Part shown: in pieces, positions 43,436 to 62,691 of the stretch
How the letters are laid out: each line of letters starts with the position of its first letter
Position numbering within the stretch: position 1 is the stretch's first letter
Origin: an uncultured virus (IMG/VR IMGVR_UViG_3300009187_000024)
Taxonomy: Duplodnaviria; Heunggongvirae; Uroviricota; Caudoviricetes
IMG/VR virus record: IMGVR_UViG_3300009187_000024
Length of the DNA: 64,000 nucleotides
Reading direction: 5' to 3' (one strand)
Notes under the pieces: generated by a model
Seen by the model: only the letters and a program-made list of their open reading frames with translations
What the model was told of the DNA's origin: nothing
Databases searched by the model: none
Translations under genes and position numbers: made by a program

Positions 43436-43529
43436 TGGTAGTCCCACCCGGAATCGAACCGAGACCGCGCTCCAATCCAGAGCATACCCAGTGTATAAGG
43501 CTGGCGTTCTACCGTTAAACTATGGGACC
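43436..43529 (-). tRNA. tRNA-Ile(UAU) with a long variable arm, CCA encoded
   Basis: Acceptor GGTCCCA/TGGGACT, anticodon arm CCAGC-CT TAT AC-ACTGG, variable stem GCTCT/GGAGC, T arm CTCGG-TTCGATT-CCGGG, ends ACCA. Confidence 0.85.
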
Positions 43530-43543
43530 AAACTAAAAATCAA

Positions 43544-43672
43544 TTGTGGCAGGTGAGGTATCTCCATGCGATCCACAGAACCGATGGTTCCCATTCTCCT
43601 TTTACGGATGATCAGTCCGCTCTACTGTTCTCGAGACTTGCGTAGCCATACAGTAGACTTTACTTACCACAA
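43544..43672 (-). ncRNA. Unidentified structured small RNA between tRNAs
   Basis: Terminal stem TTGTGGTAAGT/ACCTGCCACAA encloses three hairpins; no plausible same-strand ORF. Confidence 0.6.
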
Positions 43673-43677
43673 ACTTT

Positions 43678-43750
43678 TGGACCTGGTAGGACTTGAACCC
43701 ACAACCAAACCGTTATGAGCGGTCCGCTCTAACCATTGAGCTACAGGTCC
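43678..43750 (-). tRNA. tRNA with CAU anticodon, most likely Ile2 (lysidine); CCA not encoded
   Basis: GGACCTG/CAGGTCC acceptor with C4-G69 and C5-G68 (TilS determinants); anticodon arm GACCG-CT CAT AA-CGGTT. Confidence 0.88.
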
Positions 43751-44069: not shown

Positions 44070-44145
44070 TGGCGGACCTGGAGGGAATCGAACCCCCATC
44101 GTACAGCTTAGAAGGCTGATGCCTTATCCGTTAGACCACAGATCC
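44070..44145 (-). tRNA. tRNA-Arg(UCU), CCA encoded
   Basis: GGATCTG/CAGGTCC acceptor, anticodon loop CT TCT AA, T loop TTCGATT, ends GCCA. Confidence 0.92.
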
Positions 44146-53160: not shown

Positions 53161-53720
53161 TACAAAGAAACTTCGCCTACGATCTTTTCATCGAGGTCGG
53201 CTTCATCAAGATCGAGTTGGCGAACTCGATTCTTCCAAGCTTGTAATGCATTCTTTTCAATATTATCATCTTCCCACAACATATCGATCTCAATTCCTGC
53301 CTCCGTCAACATCTTCTTGGATGTCTCGTAGTTGTGAATCGGTATCTTGGTCGATTGGCTGATTGGTCTTGTTACAACCCTAACGATACCCGATTGAATC
53401 AACGCTCTGGCGCAATCGGAGCAGGGGAACATAGTTGTATACGCAATACAGTTATCCGTCCGTGCTCCGTTCCTAGCAGCGTTGTAGATAGCATTACGCT
53501 CGGCGTGTTCGGTCCAGAGGTACTTCTCTGGTCGTTCATGCCGCTCTTCAACGTCATCGTCAACATATCTACAAAAACCATTGTAGCCTGTTGATCTGAC
53601 GTCTTGATTATCTGAACCAACAATCACACAACCAACCTTGGTCGATCGGTCTTTCGACTTAGATGCAACCAACTCAGCCATTTTCATAAAGTAGTAGTCC
53701 CAATGCATTGTCATTATCAT
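53160..53720 (-). CDS. cd: dCMP deaminase
   Basis: SKDRSTKVG, TGYNG, HAERNA, PCSDC. Confidence 0.92.
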   Translation of the reverse strand: MIMTMHWDYYFMKMAELVASKSKDRSTKVGCVIVGSDNQDVRSTGYNGFCRYVDDDVEERHERPEKYLWTEHAERNAIYNAARNGARTDNCIAYTTMFPCSDCARALIQSGIVRVVTRPISQSTKIPIHNYETSKKMLTEAGIEIDMLWEDDNIEKNALQAWKNRVRQLDLDEADLDEKIVGEVSL

Positions 53721-53998
53721 ACCTTAATAGGATAAAAGTGTTGATGAATCGCCAAGGAATTATCAATTCCACAGCAAAGGTAACCATACTCGTACGAATT
53801 GGGAGTGCATATCTTTGGATTGATCTCTATATTTTCCATTAGATCTTTGGTTTGTTCATCAACAACCTTCATGCACTCCGCGATGATCAATTCAGCAAAC
53901 TTTCTTTCCCACATAGTTCCAGCTATTTCCCTTGGCTGCGTTTTACAATATTCTGCAGCCTGAACAGCAAGTTCTTCAATTCGATCTTTGCTCATCAA
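53717..53998 (-). CDS. Hypothetical protein
   Basis: KFAELIIAEC motif, common in phage small proteins. Confidence 0.65.
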   Translation of the reverse strand: MMSKDRIEELAVQAAEYCKTQPREIAGTMWERKFAELIIAECMKVVDEQTKDLMENIEINPKICTPNSYEYGYLCCGIDNSLAIHQHFYPIKV

Positions 53999-54267
53999 CC
54001 ATGGATCCTATTCATATGACCTGCTTTCTGGATTGCTTGCTCTTTTGTGTAACCGTCCACAAGATAAGATTTGTATAACCAATCAAATCGCATAGGTGCT
54101 AATTCATAAATTGAAAGACTTGGTTCTACTACACCAACACAACGAAAACAAAGATCCTTGTGATCAGAACAGAACCCCACTTCTTCCAGAACCTTCCAAC
54201 AACGCTCACATTTGGTTCCTATTGCTCGTGTTATTGTTACGCCAACAGTCATATTGTCACTCATCAT
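53995..54267 (-). CDS. Stand-alone zf-FPG/IleRS-type zinc finger protein
   Basis: VGVTITRAIGTKCERCWKVLEEVG...HKDLCFRCVGVV resembles the C-terminal Zn domain of type 1 IleRS. Confidence 0.7.
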   Translation of the reverse strand: MMSDNMTVGVTITRAIGTKCERCWKVLEEVGFCSDHKDLCFRCVGVVEPSLSIYELAPMRFDWLYKSYLVDGYTKEQAIQKAGHMNRIHG

Positions 54268-54445
54268 CCAATGTCCCAAGATATTTCACAACAGGTTGTT
54301 TTTGACTTTTTGCCCAAGCTTCGGCTTCTTCTACAGTGCAGAAAGTATTATATCTCAATTCTATCCAAAATGGCCACCACCAGCGCCAAATTTGAACTTC
54401 ATATCCTCTAAAGTTATCTGCAACAATACGATAACGATTTTTCAT
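54257..54445 (-). CDS. Hypothetical protein (Trp-rich)
   Basis: MKNRYRIV...YEVQIWRWWWPFW. Confidence 0.6.
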   Translation of the reverse strand: MKNRYRIVADNFRGYEVQIWRWWWPFWIELRYNTFCTVEEAEAWAKSQKQPVVKYLGTLDDE

Positions 54446-54690
54446 TTGTCTACACTCTCCCATGCCCAATTCACAATCACCCAATCATCAATACAATCAT
54501 CTTTACAATAGCCAGCATCTACAGCTTCTTTGCCAAACTTAGACACCATTGCGTTATACCAACGATCATAGTATTCAGCGAGAATCTCTTCCTCGGAGAC
54601 GACCTCAACGTATGAATCGACGGACGGATCAGTCTTCCAAGTGTTGTAACAATAATATCTCACAGCAACTTCGCTTTCATCAAGCCCCAC
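54442..54690 (-). CDS. Hypothetical protein
   Basis: SEEEILAEYY..W...CIDDWVIVNWAWE. Confidence 0.65.
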   Translation of the reverse strand: MGLDESEVAVRYYCYNTWKTDPSVDSYVEVVSEEEILAEYYDRWYNAMVSKFGKEAVDAGYCKDDCIDDWVIVNWAWESVDK

Positions 54691-54893
54691 TCAATCATTT
54701 CCATCGCGATTTGTTTGTTTTTGTGTTGAGAACGTTCTTCGCCATACTGAGCCATGATGCCTGTAGGCTCGTGCGTGACTCTAATCGAAGACGCTGGAAT
54801 ACCAGCTTGCTGACCGCCAGGATATTGTGAAGCACCAGTCTGTTCGTATATGACTTCCACTTTACAATCAGCCTGCCAGTTCGTCACCATCAA
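54660..54893 (-). CDS. Stand-alone peptide chain release factor (RF-1 family) GGQ domain
   Basis: PGGQ...SSIRVTHEPTGI...ERSQHKNK..AM matches domain 3 of RF1/RF2. Confidence 0.8.
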   Translation of the reverse strand: MMVTNWQADCKVEVIYEQTGASQYPGGQQAGIPASSIRVTHEPTGIMAQYGEERSQHKNKQIAMEMIEWGLMKAKLL

Positions 54894-58168: not shown

Positions 58169-58753
58169 TTAGAGTTTTAGATTATTTCCCTGAATCGAAT
58201 GATCTGTTCTAATCTTTTGAACAAGAGAATGTAAGATCATCATATGAGTGTCTTCTACAATTCCGTAGTTATTTGCATCAACATGAATCACCACGTCCGC
58301 CAGGTGATCCTCCAAAACTTTTCCTCCATCAAACCCCACGAGAGCGATCGTCTTCGCTCCAATAGAGTTGGAAAATTGTAGCCCACGCGTAATATTCGTG
58401 GAATTACCGCTAGAAGAAACTGCTATAGCGAGGGACGGTCTATGGTAAGAGATTTGATCCTGAAAGATATTGAGGTAACTCATATCATTAGCCAGAGCAG
58501 TCAATAGAGGACCATTGCTTGTAAGGCTCGTACACTTCGGTTTTAGATCAGTATCCGAGCGAACACCTTTTACGAAGTCAGCACAGAAATGATCAGCGAT
58601 AGCGGCAGATCCTCCGTTACCGAAGATTACTACGTTGTCCATATTTCTCAGAAGCAGCGCATATGCTTCATCAATCTTTGGTTGATCTACAGCCATAGCT
58701 GCTGCGTAAAGTTTTACAGCGTAATTGGAAAAAGAATTTGATGCAGATATCAT
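58169..58753 (-). CDS. gmhA: Phosphoheptose isomerase (SIS domain)
   Basis: GNGGSAAIADHF, TALAND, SSSGNS.N, GFDGG, VEDTHM..LH. Confidence 0.88.
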   Translation of the reverse strand: MISASNSFSNYAVKLYAAAMAVDQPKIDEAYALLLRNMDNVVIFGNGGSAAIADHFCADFVKGVRSDTDLKPKCTSLTSNGPLLTALANDMSYLNIFQDQISYHRPSLAIAVSSSGNSTNITRGLQFSNSIGAKTIALVGFDGGKVLEDHLADVVIHVDANNYGIVEDTHMMILHSLVQKIRTDHSIQGNNLKL

Positions 58754-59736
58754 AATGTTACAGCTGTGCTTCCCTGATCTGTAAAGTTGAAATTGAATCT
58801 TTTGTATTCGCGCATCGCGAGAGAAACTGATCCTCGACTAGATTCTGGAACGTAGAATAGCATATAGCCACCACCACCAGCACCAAGTAACTTACCACCG
58901 AGCGCACCAGCACTTATACCTCTCTGATACATGAAATCAATATCAGAGTTTGAGATTTTGTTTGATAACTTCTTTTTGGTTTTCCAGGCTTCGTCTAACA
59001 AAGCTCCGAAGTCATCGATCTTGTTTTTTACCAGATAACCGAGTGCCTGTTTAGCGAGGTATACCAATCTGGTTGTATTATCGAACGCGTCAACATCGTT
59101 ACTGATGTTATTGACCTGATCAGAAAGGATATCCGTGGTGTTTCTACTTATGCCTGTAGAATAACACATAAGGTTGTCATTCAACTTACGAAGAACTGAT
59201 GCCCCAATATTAAGCGGAGTAACTTCAACTCCGGATGAATCGAACCGGATAACGTTGAACCCACCATATGCTGCTGCATACTGATCTTGCTTGCCAATTG
59301 GTTCGTCGCAGAGATCGATTTCAATCTCACAAGCAGCCTCCGCAAGATCTCTCTTGTTATGAAGTAGAACCTTATGAGCATACAACGCTTTCAACAACCC
59401 TACGGTGAAAGTCGAAGAAGAACCAAGACCCGTACCCTTTGTAGGAACATCGGAGAAACTACAAATCTCGATGTTGTTTTTGATATTGAAATATTTTAAG
59501 GCTTCTCTGATACGATTGTGTCTTAACTGTTCAACCTTGTCAACAACTTCCATTTCTGAATAGACAGCTCTAATGTGATTAGTTTGACACTTGTTTAGAG
59601 CAATCTGTATATTCTTATCGATGGTAGTCGAAATGACCATCCCAGGATTTTTAGTGACACATTGATTGTAATACTGTGGAATATCTGATCCCCCTCCGAA
59701 GAAACTAACTCGGAGGGGTGTTGTTGATACTATCAT
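58750..59736 (-). CDS. hddA: D-glycero-alpha-D-manno-heptose-7-phosphate kinase (GHMP family)
   Basis: PLRVSFFGGGSD, GTGLGSSS, GKQDQYAAAYGG, GGKLLGAGGGG. Confidence 0.88.
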   Translation of the reverse strand: MIVSTTPLRVSFFGGGSDIPQYYNQCVTKNPGMVISTTIDKNIQIALNKCQTNHIRAVYSEMEVVDKVEQLRHNRIREALKYFNIKNNIEICSFSDVPTKGTGLGSSSTFTVGLLKALYAHKVLLHNKRDLAEAACEIEIDLCDEPIGKQDQYAAAYGGFNVIRFDSSGVEVTPLNIGASVLRKLNDNLMCYSTGISRNTTDILSDQVNNISNDVDAFDNTTRLVYLAKQALGYLVKNKIDDFGALLDEAWKTKKKLSNKISNSDIDFMYQRGISAGALGGKLLGAGGGGYMLFYVPESSRGSVSLAMREYKRFNFNFTDQGSTAVTL

Positions 59737-60719
59737 GTGCTATATTTGAACATCTTCTTAGGGATGCCTCTGGAACCGACTGGATACTGTTCCTTTAGAG
59801 AAGTAAGCATGTCCTGCCACTGACGAGCGATCTTGTTTATGTTGAATCGATTGTCGGCGTAGGACTTCACATAACGTAGGTAGTTCTGTGTACTTCCTTC
59901 ATGAACAACGCTGATAGCTTGGTCTAGAAGATGATAGAACTTATTGGCATGAACATTTGCATTTTCTTCGAACTGATACATTGAAGTCAGATTACCGGAA
60001 GTATCAGAAAGACCAGCAAGGTTAGGGTGCAGACAAAGAGCGCCAGCACTCATTGATTCAATAAGAGCTCGGCTATTACATTCTTGCCAAATAGAAGGAT
60101 ACGCAAAGATGTGAGCCTTCTGTTGAGCTTCTCTGACTACTTCGTTAGGAGCGAACCCATGATAAGTGATCTGTGGATGATTCTTACAGGTTTCAAATAA
60201 TTCCTTGAATTGTTCGTCCGCTCCATCCCATCCGTAGATTGAGAAACTTGAAAACACGTCGAGATGGATATTTTTTCTGTGCTTCGCGAGCTCCACGAAA
60301 ACTGGTACGAGAAGAGCCAATCCTCTTTGAGGAGTGCTTGTGTAGATGAGTCTGACTTCATCCTTGCTCTTTTCCTTATACTCAATTGGCTCAATCGGAG
60401 TGTCAATAACTGCGCACTTATCGTTCGACGGAATACTCAAAGTGTTAAGGTATTGATTGTATTGCCAGTGACCACAAAAGACCATCTTATGAAAACGGTC
60501 TCGGCTGGCAGTATCCTTTAGATGATTGGTTTCTGGATCCTGGGGAAGATCGTGCAACCAATACACTCTAATCTTGTCTTCCTCAATATTTCTAACTCTA
60601 GAGCAGATAATCTGAAACTCGTCAGCTAGACCCTCTGGCATACGCGCGGCGATCGCGCGCTTAACCATTTCAGTTCCACCAAAAGACTTGGTAGAGATTT
60701 CATTTTCCTCGAACGCCAT
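59733..60719 (-). CDS. Glycosyltransferase, GT-B (GT4-like)
   Basis: GGTE, WLHD, YTSTPQRGL, YPSIWQE.......E.MSAG. Confidence 0.85.
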   Translation of the reverse strand: MAFEENEISTKSFGGTEMVKRAIAARMPEGLADEFQIICSRVRNIEEDKIRVYWLHDLPQDPETNHLKDTASRDRFHKMVFCGHWQYNQYLNTLSIPSNDKCAVIDTPIEPIEYKEKSKDEVRLIYTSTPQRGLALLVPVFVELAKHRKNIHLDVFSSFSIYGWDGADEQFKELFETCKNHPQITYHGFAPNEVVREAQQKAHIFAYPSIWQECNSRALIESMSAGALCLHPNLAGLSDTSGNLTSMYQFEENANVHANKFYHLLDQAISVVHEGSTQNYLRYVKSYADNRFNINKIARQWQDMLTSLKEQYPVGSRGIPKKMFKYST

Positions 60720-61692
60720 TACGATACTCCCACGCAGATTTGATCATTATGTCTAAGTCATAGTGTTTATACTGGTATTGAAACCCAGTTGTTCTTATAA
60801 ATTTGTTAGGATTTGCGACTAGGAACGGCGGATCGCCTACTCTCCTAACACCGACTCTGTATTCAACTTTCCTACAAAGGTTGTTGAACATCTCGACGAT
60901 ATCTAGAACGGAGGTTCCTGTTTCGGTTCCTAGATTGAACTTCAAGGAACAAGGATCCTTGTCGTCGCTAAGGTATTTATCAGCGTGGATTAGAGCTCTA
61001 CAAACATCGACAACATGTAAGTAGTCTCGAACACAAGTACCATCTCTGGTGTCATAGTCGTCACCATGAATAACAAACGGTGTATCGCCCATTATGGCTT
61101 TGTCACAAAGTTTGTTGATGATGTGGGGAGTATCTGGTTGCTGCCCAACGTCGCCATAAGCACCAATGACGTTGAAGAATCTAAACGAAGCTACTCTCAA
61201 TTTTTTGACTTCGTAGCAAGCATCAATCATCTGCTCACACCAGAGCTTCGAAAGACCATAGTTGTTCGGGGGGCTGATTCTACTTGCTTCAGTTACAACC
61301 TTATCAGTTTCATCGTAAACCGCTGCTGTGCTTGCAAAGATAAGTTTATGTGTAGGCTTCAAATTTTGTAGAAGTTTGAGAGTCTTAGATGTGTTGTTCT
61401 CGAAGTATTCAAGAGGTAAATACGCGCTAGGTCCCAGTAAGCTACTCGCAGCAAGATGAAAGACAGTTGCTTCGGGATAATCTTTGAATACTTGCCTCGC
61501 GGGAGCGCTGGAAAAACAGTCGCCAAGGAACTCATCACAATACTTTGTTCTTGTCTTGTTTGTCATCCAACATTTTAGCGCATCGGGGTCGTTGTCAATT
61601 CCGACAACGTAGTAGTCATTTTCTTTTAGGAATTTAGTAAGAACTGAGCCGATATAACCAAACGACCCAGTTACTATAGCTACAGGTTTCAT
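60700..61692 (-). CDS. galE: NAD-dependent epimerase (GalE-like SDR)
   Basis: VTGSFGYIGS, YGLSK, RFFNV.GA, DGTCVRDYLHV.D. Confidence 0.85.
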   Translation of the reverse strand: MKPVAIVTGSFGYIGSVLTKFLKENDYYVVGIDNDPDALKCWMTNKTRTKYCDEFLGDCFSSAPARQVFKDYPEATVFHLAASSLLGPSAYLPLEYFENNTSKTLKLLQNLKPTHKLIFASTAAVYDETDKVVTEASRISPPNNYGLSKLWCEQMIDACYEVKKLRVASFRFFNVIGAYGDVGQQPDTPHIINKLCDKAIMGDTPFVIHGDDYDTRDGTCVRDYLHVVDVCRALIHADKYLSDDKDPCSLKFNLGTETGTSVLDIVEMFNNLCRKVEYRVGVRRVGDPPFLVANPNKFIRTTGFQYQYKHYDLDIMIKSAWEYRNGVRGK

Positions 61693-62291
61693 CTCTTCAG
61701 ATACACCGCATTGATAGATGTCATACGACCAAAGTTTTCAAGCGGATCAACTCGCGTGAAACCATGGTCATTATGTAAAGAATCCCACCAAGGTTCATCC
61801 TTTAGTGTAACGTGATATCCTTCATCTGGGAATGTAGCAATACCAACAGTAAAGATACCACCTTGCTTTAGGTGATTATTGATGTTTGTAAGTACTTGAA
61901 CCAAGTCGGCTTCATGAATGTGTTCAAGCACATCGAATGCCGAAATAACATCAAACTCGATACGATTACCTTCGTCGTCTAGAACTTCAAATGGTTTGGT
62001 GATATCAGCAGTGAACAGATTATTCGGAATCTTTGGCCATTCGCCATGTTCATTCTTTCTGCCATAATCACTACCTTCGATACCAACAGCAAGAATATCA
62101 TTCTTCAAGAACTGAGAAACAAACCCACCACCAGCACAACCAAGATCCATGTAACGCATATCAGGTCCAAACCTACGGATAAGTTCTCTCACATATGCGC
62201 CATTTTTAGTATTATCTTGTTTTGTGCCATTAGGAACGATGTGATCATGACTCTCGTAAGCAATCGGGAAATCAGTAACAACTCTAACCAT
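61689..62291 (-). CDS. Class I SAM-dependent methyltransferase
   Basis: MDLGCAGG, FDVISAFDVLEHI. Confidence 0.85.
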   Translation of the reverse strand: MVRVVTDFPIAYESHDHIVPNGTKQDNTKNGAYVRELIRRFGPDMRYMDLGCAGGGFVSQFLKNDILAVGIEGSDYGRKNEHGEWPKIPNNLFTADITKPFEVLDDEGNRIEFDVISAFDVLEHIHEADLVQVLTNINNHLKQGGIFTVGIATFPDEGYHVTLKDEPWWDSLHNDHGFTRVDPLENFGRMTSINAVYLKR

Positions 62292-62691
62292 TTTTAATTC
62301 TTCTCCTCAATTCAGAACTACTCCAAGTGTGATATCTCGGAATCAAAATAATCTCTATGTTTCGTTCTCTACAAATTTCCATACCAGTGTAAGATCTGAA
62401 AGCGTAATCTGAACCTATGAATCTTTTATTGATATTCGCGGTTGATAAAAAATTCACTAGATCTAACTCCGTGTCATACGGAAAGATATCGTTGACAGCA
62501 TTCAGAGCGCCTAGCTGAATGTGTCTTTCTAAAGTAGACTGCACGGGTTTGTTCTTTTCCGGACGATCAATAGTTGGGTCAGTATGCAACCCAACAACCA
62601 AATAGTCACATTGTTTCGCGGCACTATTCAAAAGATGAACGTGACCGGGATGTAGTAGGTCAAATGCGCCGCAAGTGAATCCTACTACCAT
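62284..62691 (-). CDS. Cytidylyltransferase (TagD/RfaE-II-like)
   Basis: GAFDLLHPGH, LVVGL, GSDY, SSSELRRRI. Confidence 0.85.
   Translation of the reverse strand: MVVGFTCGAFDLLHPGHVHLLNSAAKQCDYLVVGLHTDPTIDRPEKNKPVQSTLERHIQLGALNAVNDIFPYDTELDLVNFLSTANINKRFIGSDYAFRSYTGMEICRERNIEIILIPRYHTWSSSELRRRIKNG

Follow-up and report, generated by a model that had tools for sequence, protein, structure and literature searches.

Why would a phage carry the C-terminal zinc finger of an isoleucyl-tRNA synthetase (IleRS) as a protein of its own? The question is raised by a small gene in DNA from an uncultured virus of the Caudoviricetes (IMG/VR record IMGVR_UViG_3300009187_000024); the whole stretch of 64,000 nucleotides that was analysed is referred to below as the window. 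The phage backbone is T4-like, with gp32, gp59, gp33, PhoH, and RNase H. The nearest relatives of gp32 are found in Caulobacter phage Cr30 and in cyanophages (55% to 60% identity), and the sequencing runs that contain this DNA are labelled freshwater or lake metagenomes. No integrase is present among the 42 ORFs scanned at 40.4 to 63.6 kb. The coordinates of the finger gene, of the parts of its product and of the features around it are given in Table 1.

Table 1. Positions in the window of the finger gene, the segments of its product, the adjoining genes, and the tRNAs.
Feature	Position	Strand	Basis or remark
Finger gene, coding sequence for a 90-aa protein	53995..54267	-	ORF list; stop codon 53995-53997
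Finger gene with alternative start TTG at 54279, 94 aa	53995..54279	-	ATG at 54267 gives 90 aa
Residues 9-48, lead-in strand and IleRS-type zinc-binding domain (ZBD, treble clef)	54124..54243	-	PF06827, alignments to IleRS 8c9e and 1ffy, Foldseek
W24 codon; the equivalent Trp of IleRS stacks on anticodon base 34	54196..54198	-	Alignment to IleRS PDB chain
Residues 49-90, family-specific C-terminal helical hairpin (predicted)	53998..54123	-	AlphaFold2 model, column counts
Upstream 75-aa gene, phrog_8363, function-unknown class	54257..54484	-	Stop overlaps the start region of the finger gene
82-aa gene, no family match	54442..54690	-	tblastn match in 10/18 family loci
Downstream 93-aa gene	53717..53998	-	Start overlaps the stop of the finger gene
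tRNA(UAU) with 21-nt variable-region insertion	43439..43529	-	ARAGORN; Rfam RF00005, 52.6 bits
tRNA(CAU), most like tRNA-Ile2	43678..43750	-	ARAGORN: Met; Rfam, 70.5 bits
tRNA-Arg(UCU)	44073-44145	-	Third of three tRNAs in the window

According to the original prediction, the finger resembles the C-terminal ZBD of IleRS and is fused to about 40 unrelated residues, and both parts are borne out. Pfam zf-FPG_IleRS (PF06827) matches residues 19 to 44 above its cut-off (E 3.7e-5; 23.9 bits versus 21.3 bits), and a protein atlas lookup returned PF06827 clusters only. In a phmmer search against PDB sequences, the significant matches are to IleRS only, at the very end of the chain (8c9e, residues 876 to 915 of 921, E 2.2e-6; 1ffy, residues 876 to 914 of 917, E 4.5e-4), and both alignments take in the strand that precedes the first cysteine. 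A profile of the family finds the same chains with E-values of 7.2e-14 (8c9e) and 6.5e-9 (1ffy). The likeness to the IleRS ZBD (1ffy/1qu2 and 8c9e) comprises the 4 cysteines with their CxxC, 16 residues, CxxC spacing, the lead-in strand, and an Arg and a Trp at the positions that contact the wobble base. The ligands C20, C23, C40, and C43 are present in every row of the family alignment. Identity is 50% over 40 residues with 8c9e and up to 68% with alphaproteobacterial IleRS fingers, while the approximately 42 residues past the finger match nothing in IleRS.

The PF06827 model is shared with the finger of Fpg/MutM and Nei glycosylases, which is likewise a four-Cys beta-hairpin finger. The phage protein lacks a glycosylase domain, and there are no Fpg or Nei chains among the 9 PDB sequences that the family profile retrieves at E ≤ 10; its best matches are to IleRS and not to DksA or Fpg. 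A DksA/TraR-type C4 finger was considered and rejected, given that a Pfam scan at E ≤ 10 yields PF06827 and a sub-cut-off zf-P11 match only. The protein is not an IleRS enzyme either: the ORF is only 90 to 94 aa long and flanked by stops and neighbouring genes, the IleRS match is limited to residues 9 to 48, and the catalytic HUP, editing, and helical anticodon-binding domains are all missing. Compared with IleRS, the phage form is a separate 90-residue chain without a synthetase body, and it has 42 extra C-terminal residues where IleRS ends. As judged by sequence comparison, the predicted protein is a free-standing homologue of the type-1 IleRS C-terminal ZBD with a novel hairpin tail.

The AlphaFold2 model, built on an 18-sequence alignment (mean pLDDT 85.1), predicts a zinc ribbon followed by helices at residues 41 to 47, 53 to 70, and 75 to 88. 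A Foldseek search of the PDB with this model has 8c9e as its best row (38 columns, rmsd 1.7 Å, 50% identity, probability 0.99, E 0.37) and no row at E ≤ 0.001; in the VIA-align lists, the finger domain is too small to rank. For the predicted hairpin, Foldseek (PDB and BFVD) and VIA-align (wide and second-look) gave generic helical matches only, with Z ≤ 4.9. Residues 49 to 90 match no Pfam, PHROG, or PADLOC family, and Pfam searches with all 23 family members produced nothing consistent for the tail. A search for longer proteins with this tail found none, which we regard as weak evidence. Within the family, R60, F61, D62, G72, A78, A82, and N86 of the tail are invariant or nearly so, and V10, V12, A15, and G17 are conserved in the lead-in strand.

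What could a finger of this type do by itself? The original prediction held that the domain contacts anticodon position 34, and PMC3575796 backs this, describing for S. aureus IleRS a backbone contact at R888 and stacking by W890. The same paper reports that wild-type E. coli IleRS charges the UAU anticodon poorly, that the residue at the position equivalent to W24 decides this, and that replacement of Trp905 by Arg or Lys makes the enzyme accept both UAU and CAU anticodons. In the PDB alignment, where the chain number equals the query number plus 866, R22 and W24 are the phage counterparts of R888 and W890 in S. aureus IleRS. R22 is an arginine in 22 of 22 aligned family rows, and position 24 is Trp in 17, Arg in 4, and Tyr in 1. 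Since arginine at position 24 is the substitution that widens E. coli IleRS to pyrimidine-34, its presence in 4 of the 22 rows suggests that the position is tuned as an RNA-reading residue. R22 and W24 could also be kept for folding alone.

Our main reading, to which we give a probability of roughly 0.35, is that the finger protein may be a trans-acting binder of tRNA-Ile-type anticodon loops. The finger would dock on the anticodon loop of tRNA-Ile-type RNAs as it does inside IleRS: W24 would stack on base 34 (G or lysidine), the same base would be contacted by the backbone at R22, and the hairpin would contribute extra affinity, self-association, or a partner. As a factor acting in trans, the protein would take up the loop in competition with IleRS, with the lysidine synthetase TilS, or with a host anticodon nuclease or modifier, so that tRNA-Ile would be protected or sequestered during infection. 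In PMC13752280, the ZBD is presented as an approximately 31-residue treble clef that reads base 34 jointly with the helical anticodon-binding domains; a finger of that size alone, without these domains, may bind weakly, which counts against a tRNA binder. In addition, the family is not basic (median net charge 0, median pI 6.8), so that a strong RNA binder is not favoured. A finger repurposed for binding protein or DNA is almost as likely as a tRNA binder.

The tRNAs of the window bear on these readings in different ways. Two Ile tRNAs had been claimed, and this agrees with our annotation: besides tRNA(UAU), there is a tRNA with a CAU anticodon whose six best rows in E. coli RefSeq, all of 73 nt and with 77% to 80% identity, are annotated as tRNA-Ile. 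As a separate observation, the extra arm of tRNA(UAU) is unusually long for a tRNA-Ile, and its discriminator base is A; nothing similar was found among cultured phages. Together, tRNA(UAU), tRNA(CAU), and tRNA-Arg(UCU) give the phage decoders for rare A-ending codons, namely AUA (twice) and AGA. The claim of an RNA with a GAU loop finds no thermodynamic support: the minimum-energy fold of the 148-nt spacer between the tRNAs (43530-43677) lacks the candidate hairpin, and the spacer is no more stable than shuffled versions (z-score -0.63).

The suggested linkage of the finger gene to tRNA-Ile(UAU) fares no better, with co-occurrence in 1 of 3 family-bearing records that have tRNA data. On a 59-kb record encoding a 98% identical protein (L002), ARAGORN typed 12 tRNAs in the examined stretch (Rfam lists 13 tRNA matches overall, one more than ARAGORN typed); Ile(GAU) is included, and neither UAU nor CAU is among them. 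In a second record (L007, the same as L110), the finger gene lies inside a 15-tRNA array, with tRNA-Ile(GAU) 1.3 kb upstream and, on the downstream side, tRNA-Tyr at approximately 120 nt and a tmRNA at 0.5 kb; GAU is the only Ile type in this array, and UAU and CAU are both missing. An Ile tRNA is expected anyway in arrays of 12 and 15 tRNAs, so its presence carries no information. At the other family loci scanned, the flanking DNA examined contains no tRNAs, leaving the L007/L110 lineage as the only one that has them, and none were seen near the other finger types described below; L004, L014, L103, L107, and L108 were left out of these scans. The tmRNA of the 15-tRNA array (L007 6759-7078, equivalent to L110 5759-6078) is marked as permuted by ARAGORN, with a tag that ends in ...LAA.

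The two AUA-type tRNAs of the window also suit a reading in which the protein acts on host IleRS. The free finger and its lead-in strand would dock at or near the enzyme's own finger and alter the charging of tRNA-Ile, for example of the phage AUA-readers. Conservation of the lead-in strand (V10, V12, A15, and G17), through which the finger is attached to the rest of IleRS, fits such docking, as does the decisive role of the W24-equivalent residue in UAU charging by E. coli IleRS. Nevertheless, we hold this to be improbable: the window protein has W and not R or K at position 24 and so would not widen recognition, its 98% identical relative comes from a record with no UAU or CAU among the 12 typed tRNAs, and an intramolecular finger would be hard to displace.

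For the source of the finger, we scanned cellular genomes (one genome per species) with a pattern derived from the phage family. The best 80 cellular loci are all ileS 3' ends: 75 belong to frames 800 codons long or longer, 3 are truncated by a contig end, and 2 have shorter frames (L037 and L059). In 78 of these 80, the IleRS frame ends no more than 14 codons past the aligned stretch, and the hairpin tail is found in none of them. The phage finger is 53% to 68% identical to the cellular IleRS fingers. By their titles, 73 of the best 80 loci come from genera that we take to be Alphaproteobacteria (mainly Rhodospirillales, Acetobacteraceae, and Azospirillum), a count that reflects a shared motif and not an unbiased phylogeny, since the scan pattern was itself derived from the family. 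The likeliest origin of the finger is capture of the 3' terminus of an ileS gene of alphaproteobacterial type; the named cluster members offer no usable taxonomy for tracing the donor. A full-length IleRS with the finger at its end is also encoded on a 543-kb viral contig (L014, 3280-6111, 944-codon frame).

Is the gene, then, just a leftover of that capture? The two-domain family is under purifying selection. Close relatives of the finger protein are 73% to 100% identical, and dN/dS is 0.03 to 0.25 in both halves for close-relative pairs with dS ≥ 0.2 (24 of 28). Between the window and one relative (L003), the finger half has 8 synonymous and 0 non-synonymous changes. Over 221 distant pairs, mean identity is 0.55 in the finger versus 0.32 in the tail. 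A remnant without function, left over from capture of the 3' end of a host ileS, or an attP-type piece able to restore ileS upon integration, might be read from two facts: the cellular matches fall almost without exception at the very 3' end of ileS, and some phage fingers have longer IleRS-like lead-ins (L183 and L202). We consider this very improbable given the dN/dS values in both halves, the gene's own start and coupled neighbours, an extra domain that is conserved and common to phages of 41% to 71% G+C (the range of the family DNA), and a T4-like backbone without an integrase in the region scanned.

The family itself is sparse. HMMER over 1.84 billion representatives returned 432 proteins at E ≤ 0.001, including 7 at E ≤ 1e-10; the top full-length matches (84 to 112 aa) have both halves, and the remainder are IleRS C-terminal fragments. 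When a collection of 5.8 billion clusters was searched with the profile, 31 proteins passed E ≤ 1e-8, made up of 17 two-domain proteins (2 of them truncated) and 14 IleRS fragments. All 17 are sourced from metagenomes and are named "hypothetical protein", except for one that has a RecF-pathway label. Among cultured phages, tblastn against 50,697 records found no two-domain homologue and 9 matches to the finger part only, 3 annotated as isoleucine-tRNA ligase or ileS and 6 in unannotated records; megablast with 5 kb around the finger gene gave no match in cultured phages. The two-domain family is, in these searches, rare and confined to phage and metagenome DNA. PF06827 is matched by 21 of the 23 family members, the finger protein matches no PHROG family, and a PADLOC scan of the 23 members gave one match at chance level (E 0.026).

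Contigs from two metatranscriptome libraries, belonging to two studies, span the finger gene (5,444 nt in run X3 and 1,695 nt in run X5). Contigs of RNA libraries may be carried-over DNA, and these are thus consistent with transcription without being proof of it. A further feature of the gene is that the N-terminal 15 to 30 residues (54213-54267 on the minus strand of the window) are exchanged among near-identical relatives in at least 3 versions, with the break falling precisely where the finger begins; the alternative N-terminal end, with the same break, is also seen in a related strain in run X6.

The gene order in the window is PhoH, three small genes (one for an RF-1/GGQ protein), the 82-aa gene, the 75-aa gene, the finger gene, the 93-aa gene, dCMP deaminase, and a PD-(D/E)XK nuclease. 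The overlaps of starts and stops among the 75-aa, finger, and 93-aa genes suggest that the three are translationally coupled. A homologue of the 75-aa gene is found upstream in 5 of the 18 family loci searched. The 82-aa gene is the only steady neighbour, its 10 loci all being close relatives, and its homologue ends beside the finger gene in L002, L102, L105, and L010. A homologue of the 93-aa gene follows directly downstream in L001, L099, L003, L102, and L101 and is absent there in L002, where the small genes are replaced by a metallophosphoesterase. Elsewhere, the finger gene has an RNA ligase two genes upstream (L104), is followed by an ATP-dependent ligase and a metallophosphoesterase (L109), comes after portal and head genes (L011), or lies within DNA inserted between a TerS-like gene and TerL, where it overlaps TerL by 4 nt (L008/L009). 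Because the neighbours vary from locus to locus, the pattern is that of a mobile accessory gene.

Two other parts of the window deserve mention in their own right. Three genes upstream of the finger gene (54660-54893, minus strand), a 77-aa protein consists of hardly anything beyond an RF-1/GGQ peptidyl-tRNA-hydrolase domain (Pfam RF-1, 46.6 bits versus a 35-bit cut-off; the PHROG call is also RF-1 domain). L001 and L106 have the gene as well, other relatives lack it or have another gene in its place, and its product looks like a minimal ArfB-type ribosome-rescue factor. Further along, at 58169-62691 on the minus strand, there are genes for a SIS-domain isomerase, a GHMP kinase, a glycosyltransferase, a nucleotide-sugar epimerase, a methyltransferase, and a heptose-phosphate adenylyltransferase-like protein, and then S-adenosylmethionine decarboxylase; the sugar-nucleotide genes look like a putative phage-borne heptose pathway.

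The genomic surroundings cut both ways for a tRNA binder. In its favour are the translation- or RNA-related neighbours of some loci, namely the RF-1/GGQ gene in the window, the tRNA array with tmRNA in L007, and the RNA ligase in L104. Against it, there is no consistent linkage to tRNA genes and the neighbours differ by locus, which adds to the neutral charge of the family. The position of the gene among DNA-metabolism genes in T4-like loci, and directly against TerL in L008/L009, would also be in keeping with a protein that binds DNA, as a small regulator dimerised through its hairpin or as a packaging accessory, all the more as PF06827 includes the DNA-contacting fingers of Fpg and Nei. We give such a role little chance: the family profile retrieves no Fpg/Nei chain at E ≤ 10 versus 7e-14 for IleRS, the protein is not basic, and L008 has a TerS-like gene of its own 1 kb upstream, in a slot that similar genes fill in related phages. 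A small terminase was specifically considered and rejected, as that separate gene (L008, 583-960) resembles the gene before TerL in MW202867.1.

The same variability of location agrees with a finger repurposed for protein contacts. The product would then be a small, zinc-stabilised adaptor or inhibitor of a host or phage protein, for instance in anti-defence or host takeover, and the hairpin, with R60, F61, D62, and N86, would be its working surface, the descent from IleRS contributing no more than a stable fold. Besides the accessory islands that vary between phages (including the insertion between the TerS-like gene and TerL in L008), the net charge is neutral, the hairpin has conserved polar residues, and the N-terminal ends swapped among close relatives give a mosaic. 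This is a serious alternative, only a little less likely than tRNA binding; against it, the finger is more conserved than the tail, remains 53% to 68% identical to cellular IleRS fingers, and recurs with unrelated tails, and no PADLOC or PHROG family is matched.

The recurrence is seen on viral contigs, where the same finger is present with other tails in at least 6 forms. One of these, of 79 aa (L012/L013), belongs to a cluster of 16 members (P0018), one of which is found on 48 contigs; another joins the finger to pentapeptide repeats (L015/L016), and further examples are L179/L189, L183, L187, and L202. These proteins resemble the one in the window in being phage-borne and small, with fingers up to 60% identical, and they differ in their unrelated tails or N-termini, the helical hairpin being restricted to the 90-aa family. 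A degenerate DNA scan for the finger gave 25 matches, 7 of them out-of-frame chance matches (L181, L182, L193, L195, L196, L197, and L199). Since the finger recurs with at least 6 different tails, it appears to be the working part. It is possible, if doubtful, that phages have repeatedly taken the IleRS finger as a free clamp on the tRNA-Ile anticodon loop, which would constitute a new class of tRNA-targeting factor.

Phages carry tRNAs, tRNA repair enzymes, and whole synthetases. Among cellular proteins, Trbp111 and Arc1p-type domains are tRNA-binding appendages derived from aminoacyl-tRNA synthetases that exist as separate proteins, which is the same concept as that of the phage finger; unlike the finger, these modules have an OB fold, are cellular, and bind in a structure-specific manner. 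In the literature searched, we found no free-standing anticodon-reading module of a synthetase as a phage protein. A 2026 paper on IleRS domain evolution (PMC13752280) mentions, in the sections consulted, no stand-alone or phage IleRS finger, and treats the origin of the IleRS1 finger as an open question. The domain itself is known, and the phage family with a separate finger and this tail is new to the literature searched.

From the comparisons made here, an IleRS-type finger has been joined to a predicted new hairpin, and selection maintains the fusion as a small accessory gene in a T4-like phage from fresh water. If the protein does not bind tRNA, it would still be a clear case of a synthetase domain recruited for another use. 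Should tRNA-Ile prove to be its target, the protein would amount to a small natural tRNA binder with anticodon specificity; it would add a new layer to the contest between phages and hosts over tRNAs, and it would bear on how the IleRS1 finger arose. If the finger indeed acts as a clamp, tRNA-Ile could be shielded from host anticodon nucleases or modifiers, or host tRNA-Ile could be withheld so that AUA, AUU, and AUC are decoded via phage tRNAs, with W or R at position 24 setting the wobble base that is bound.
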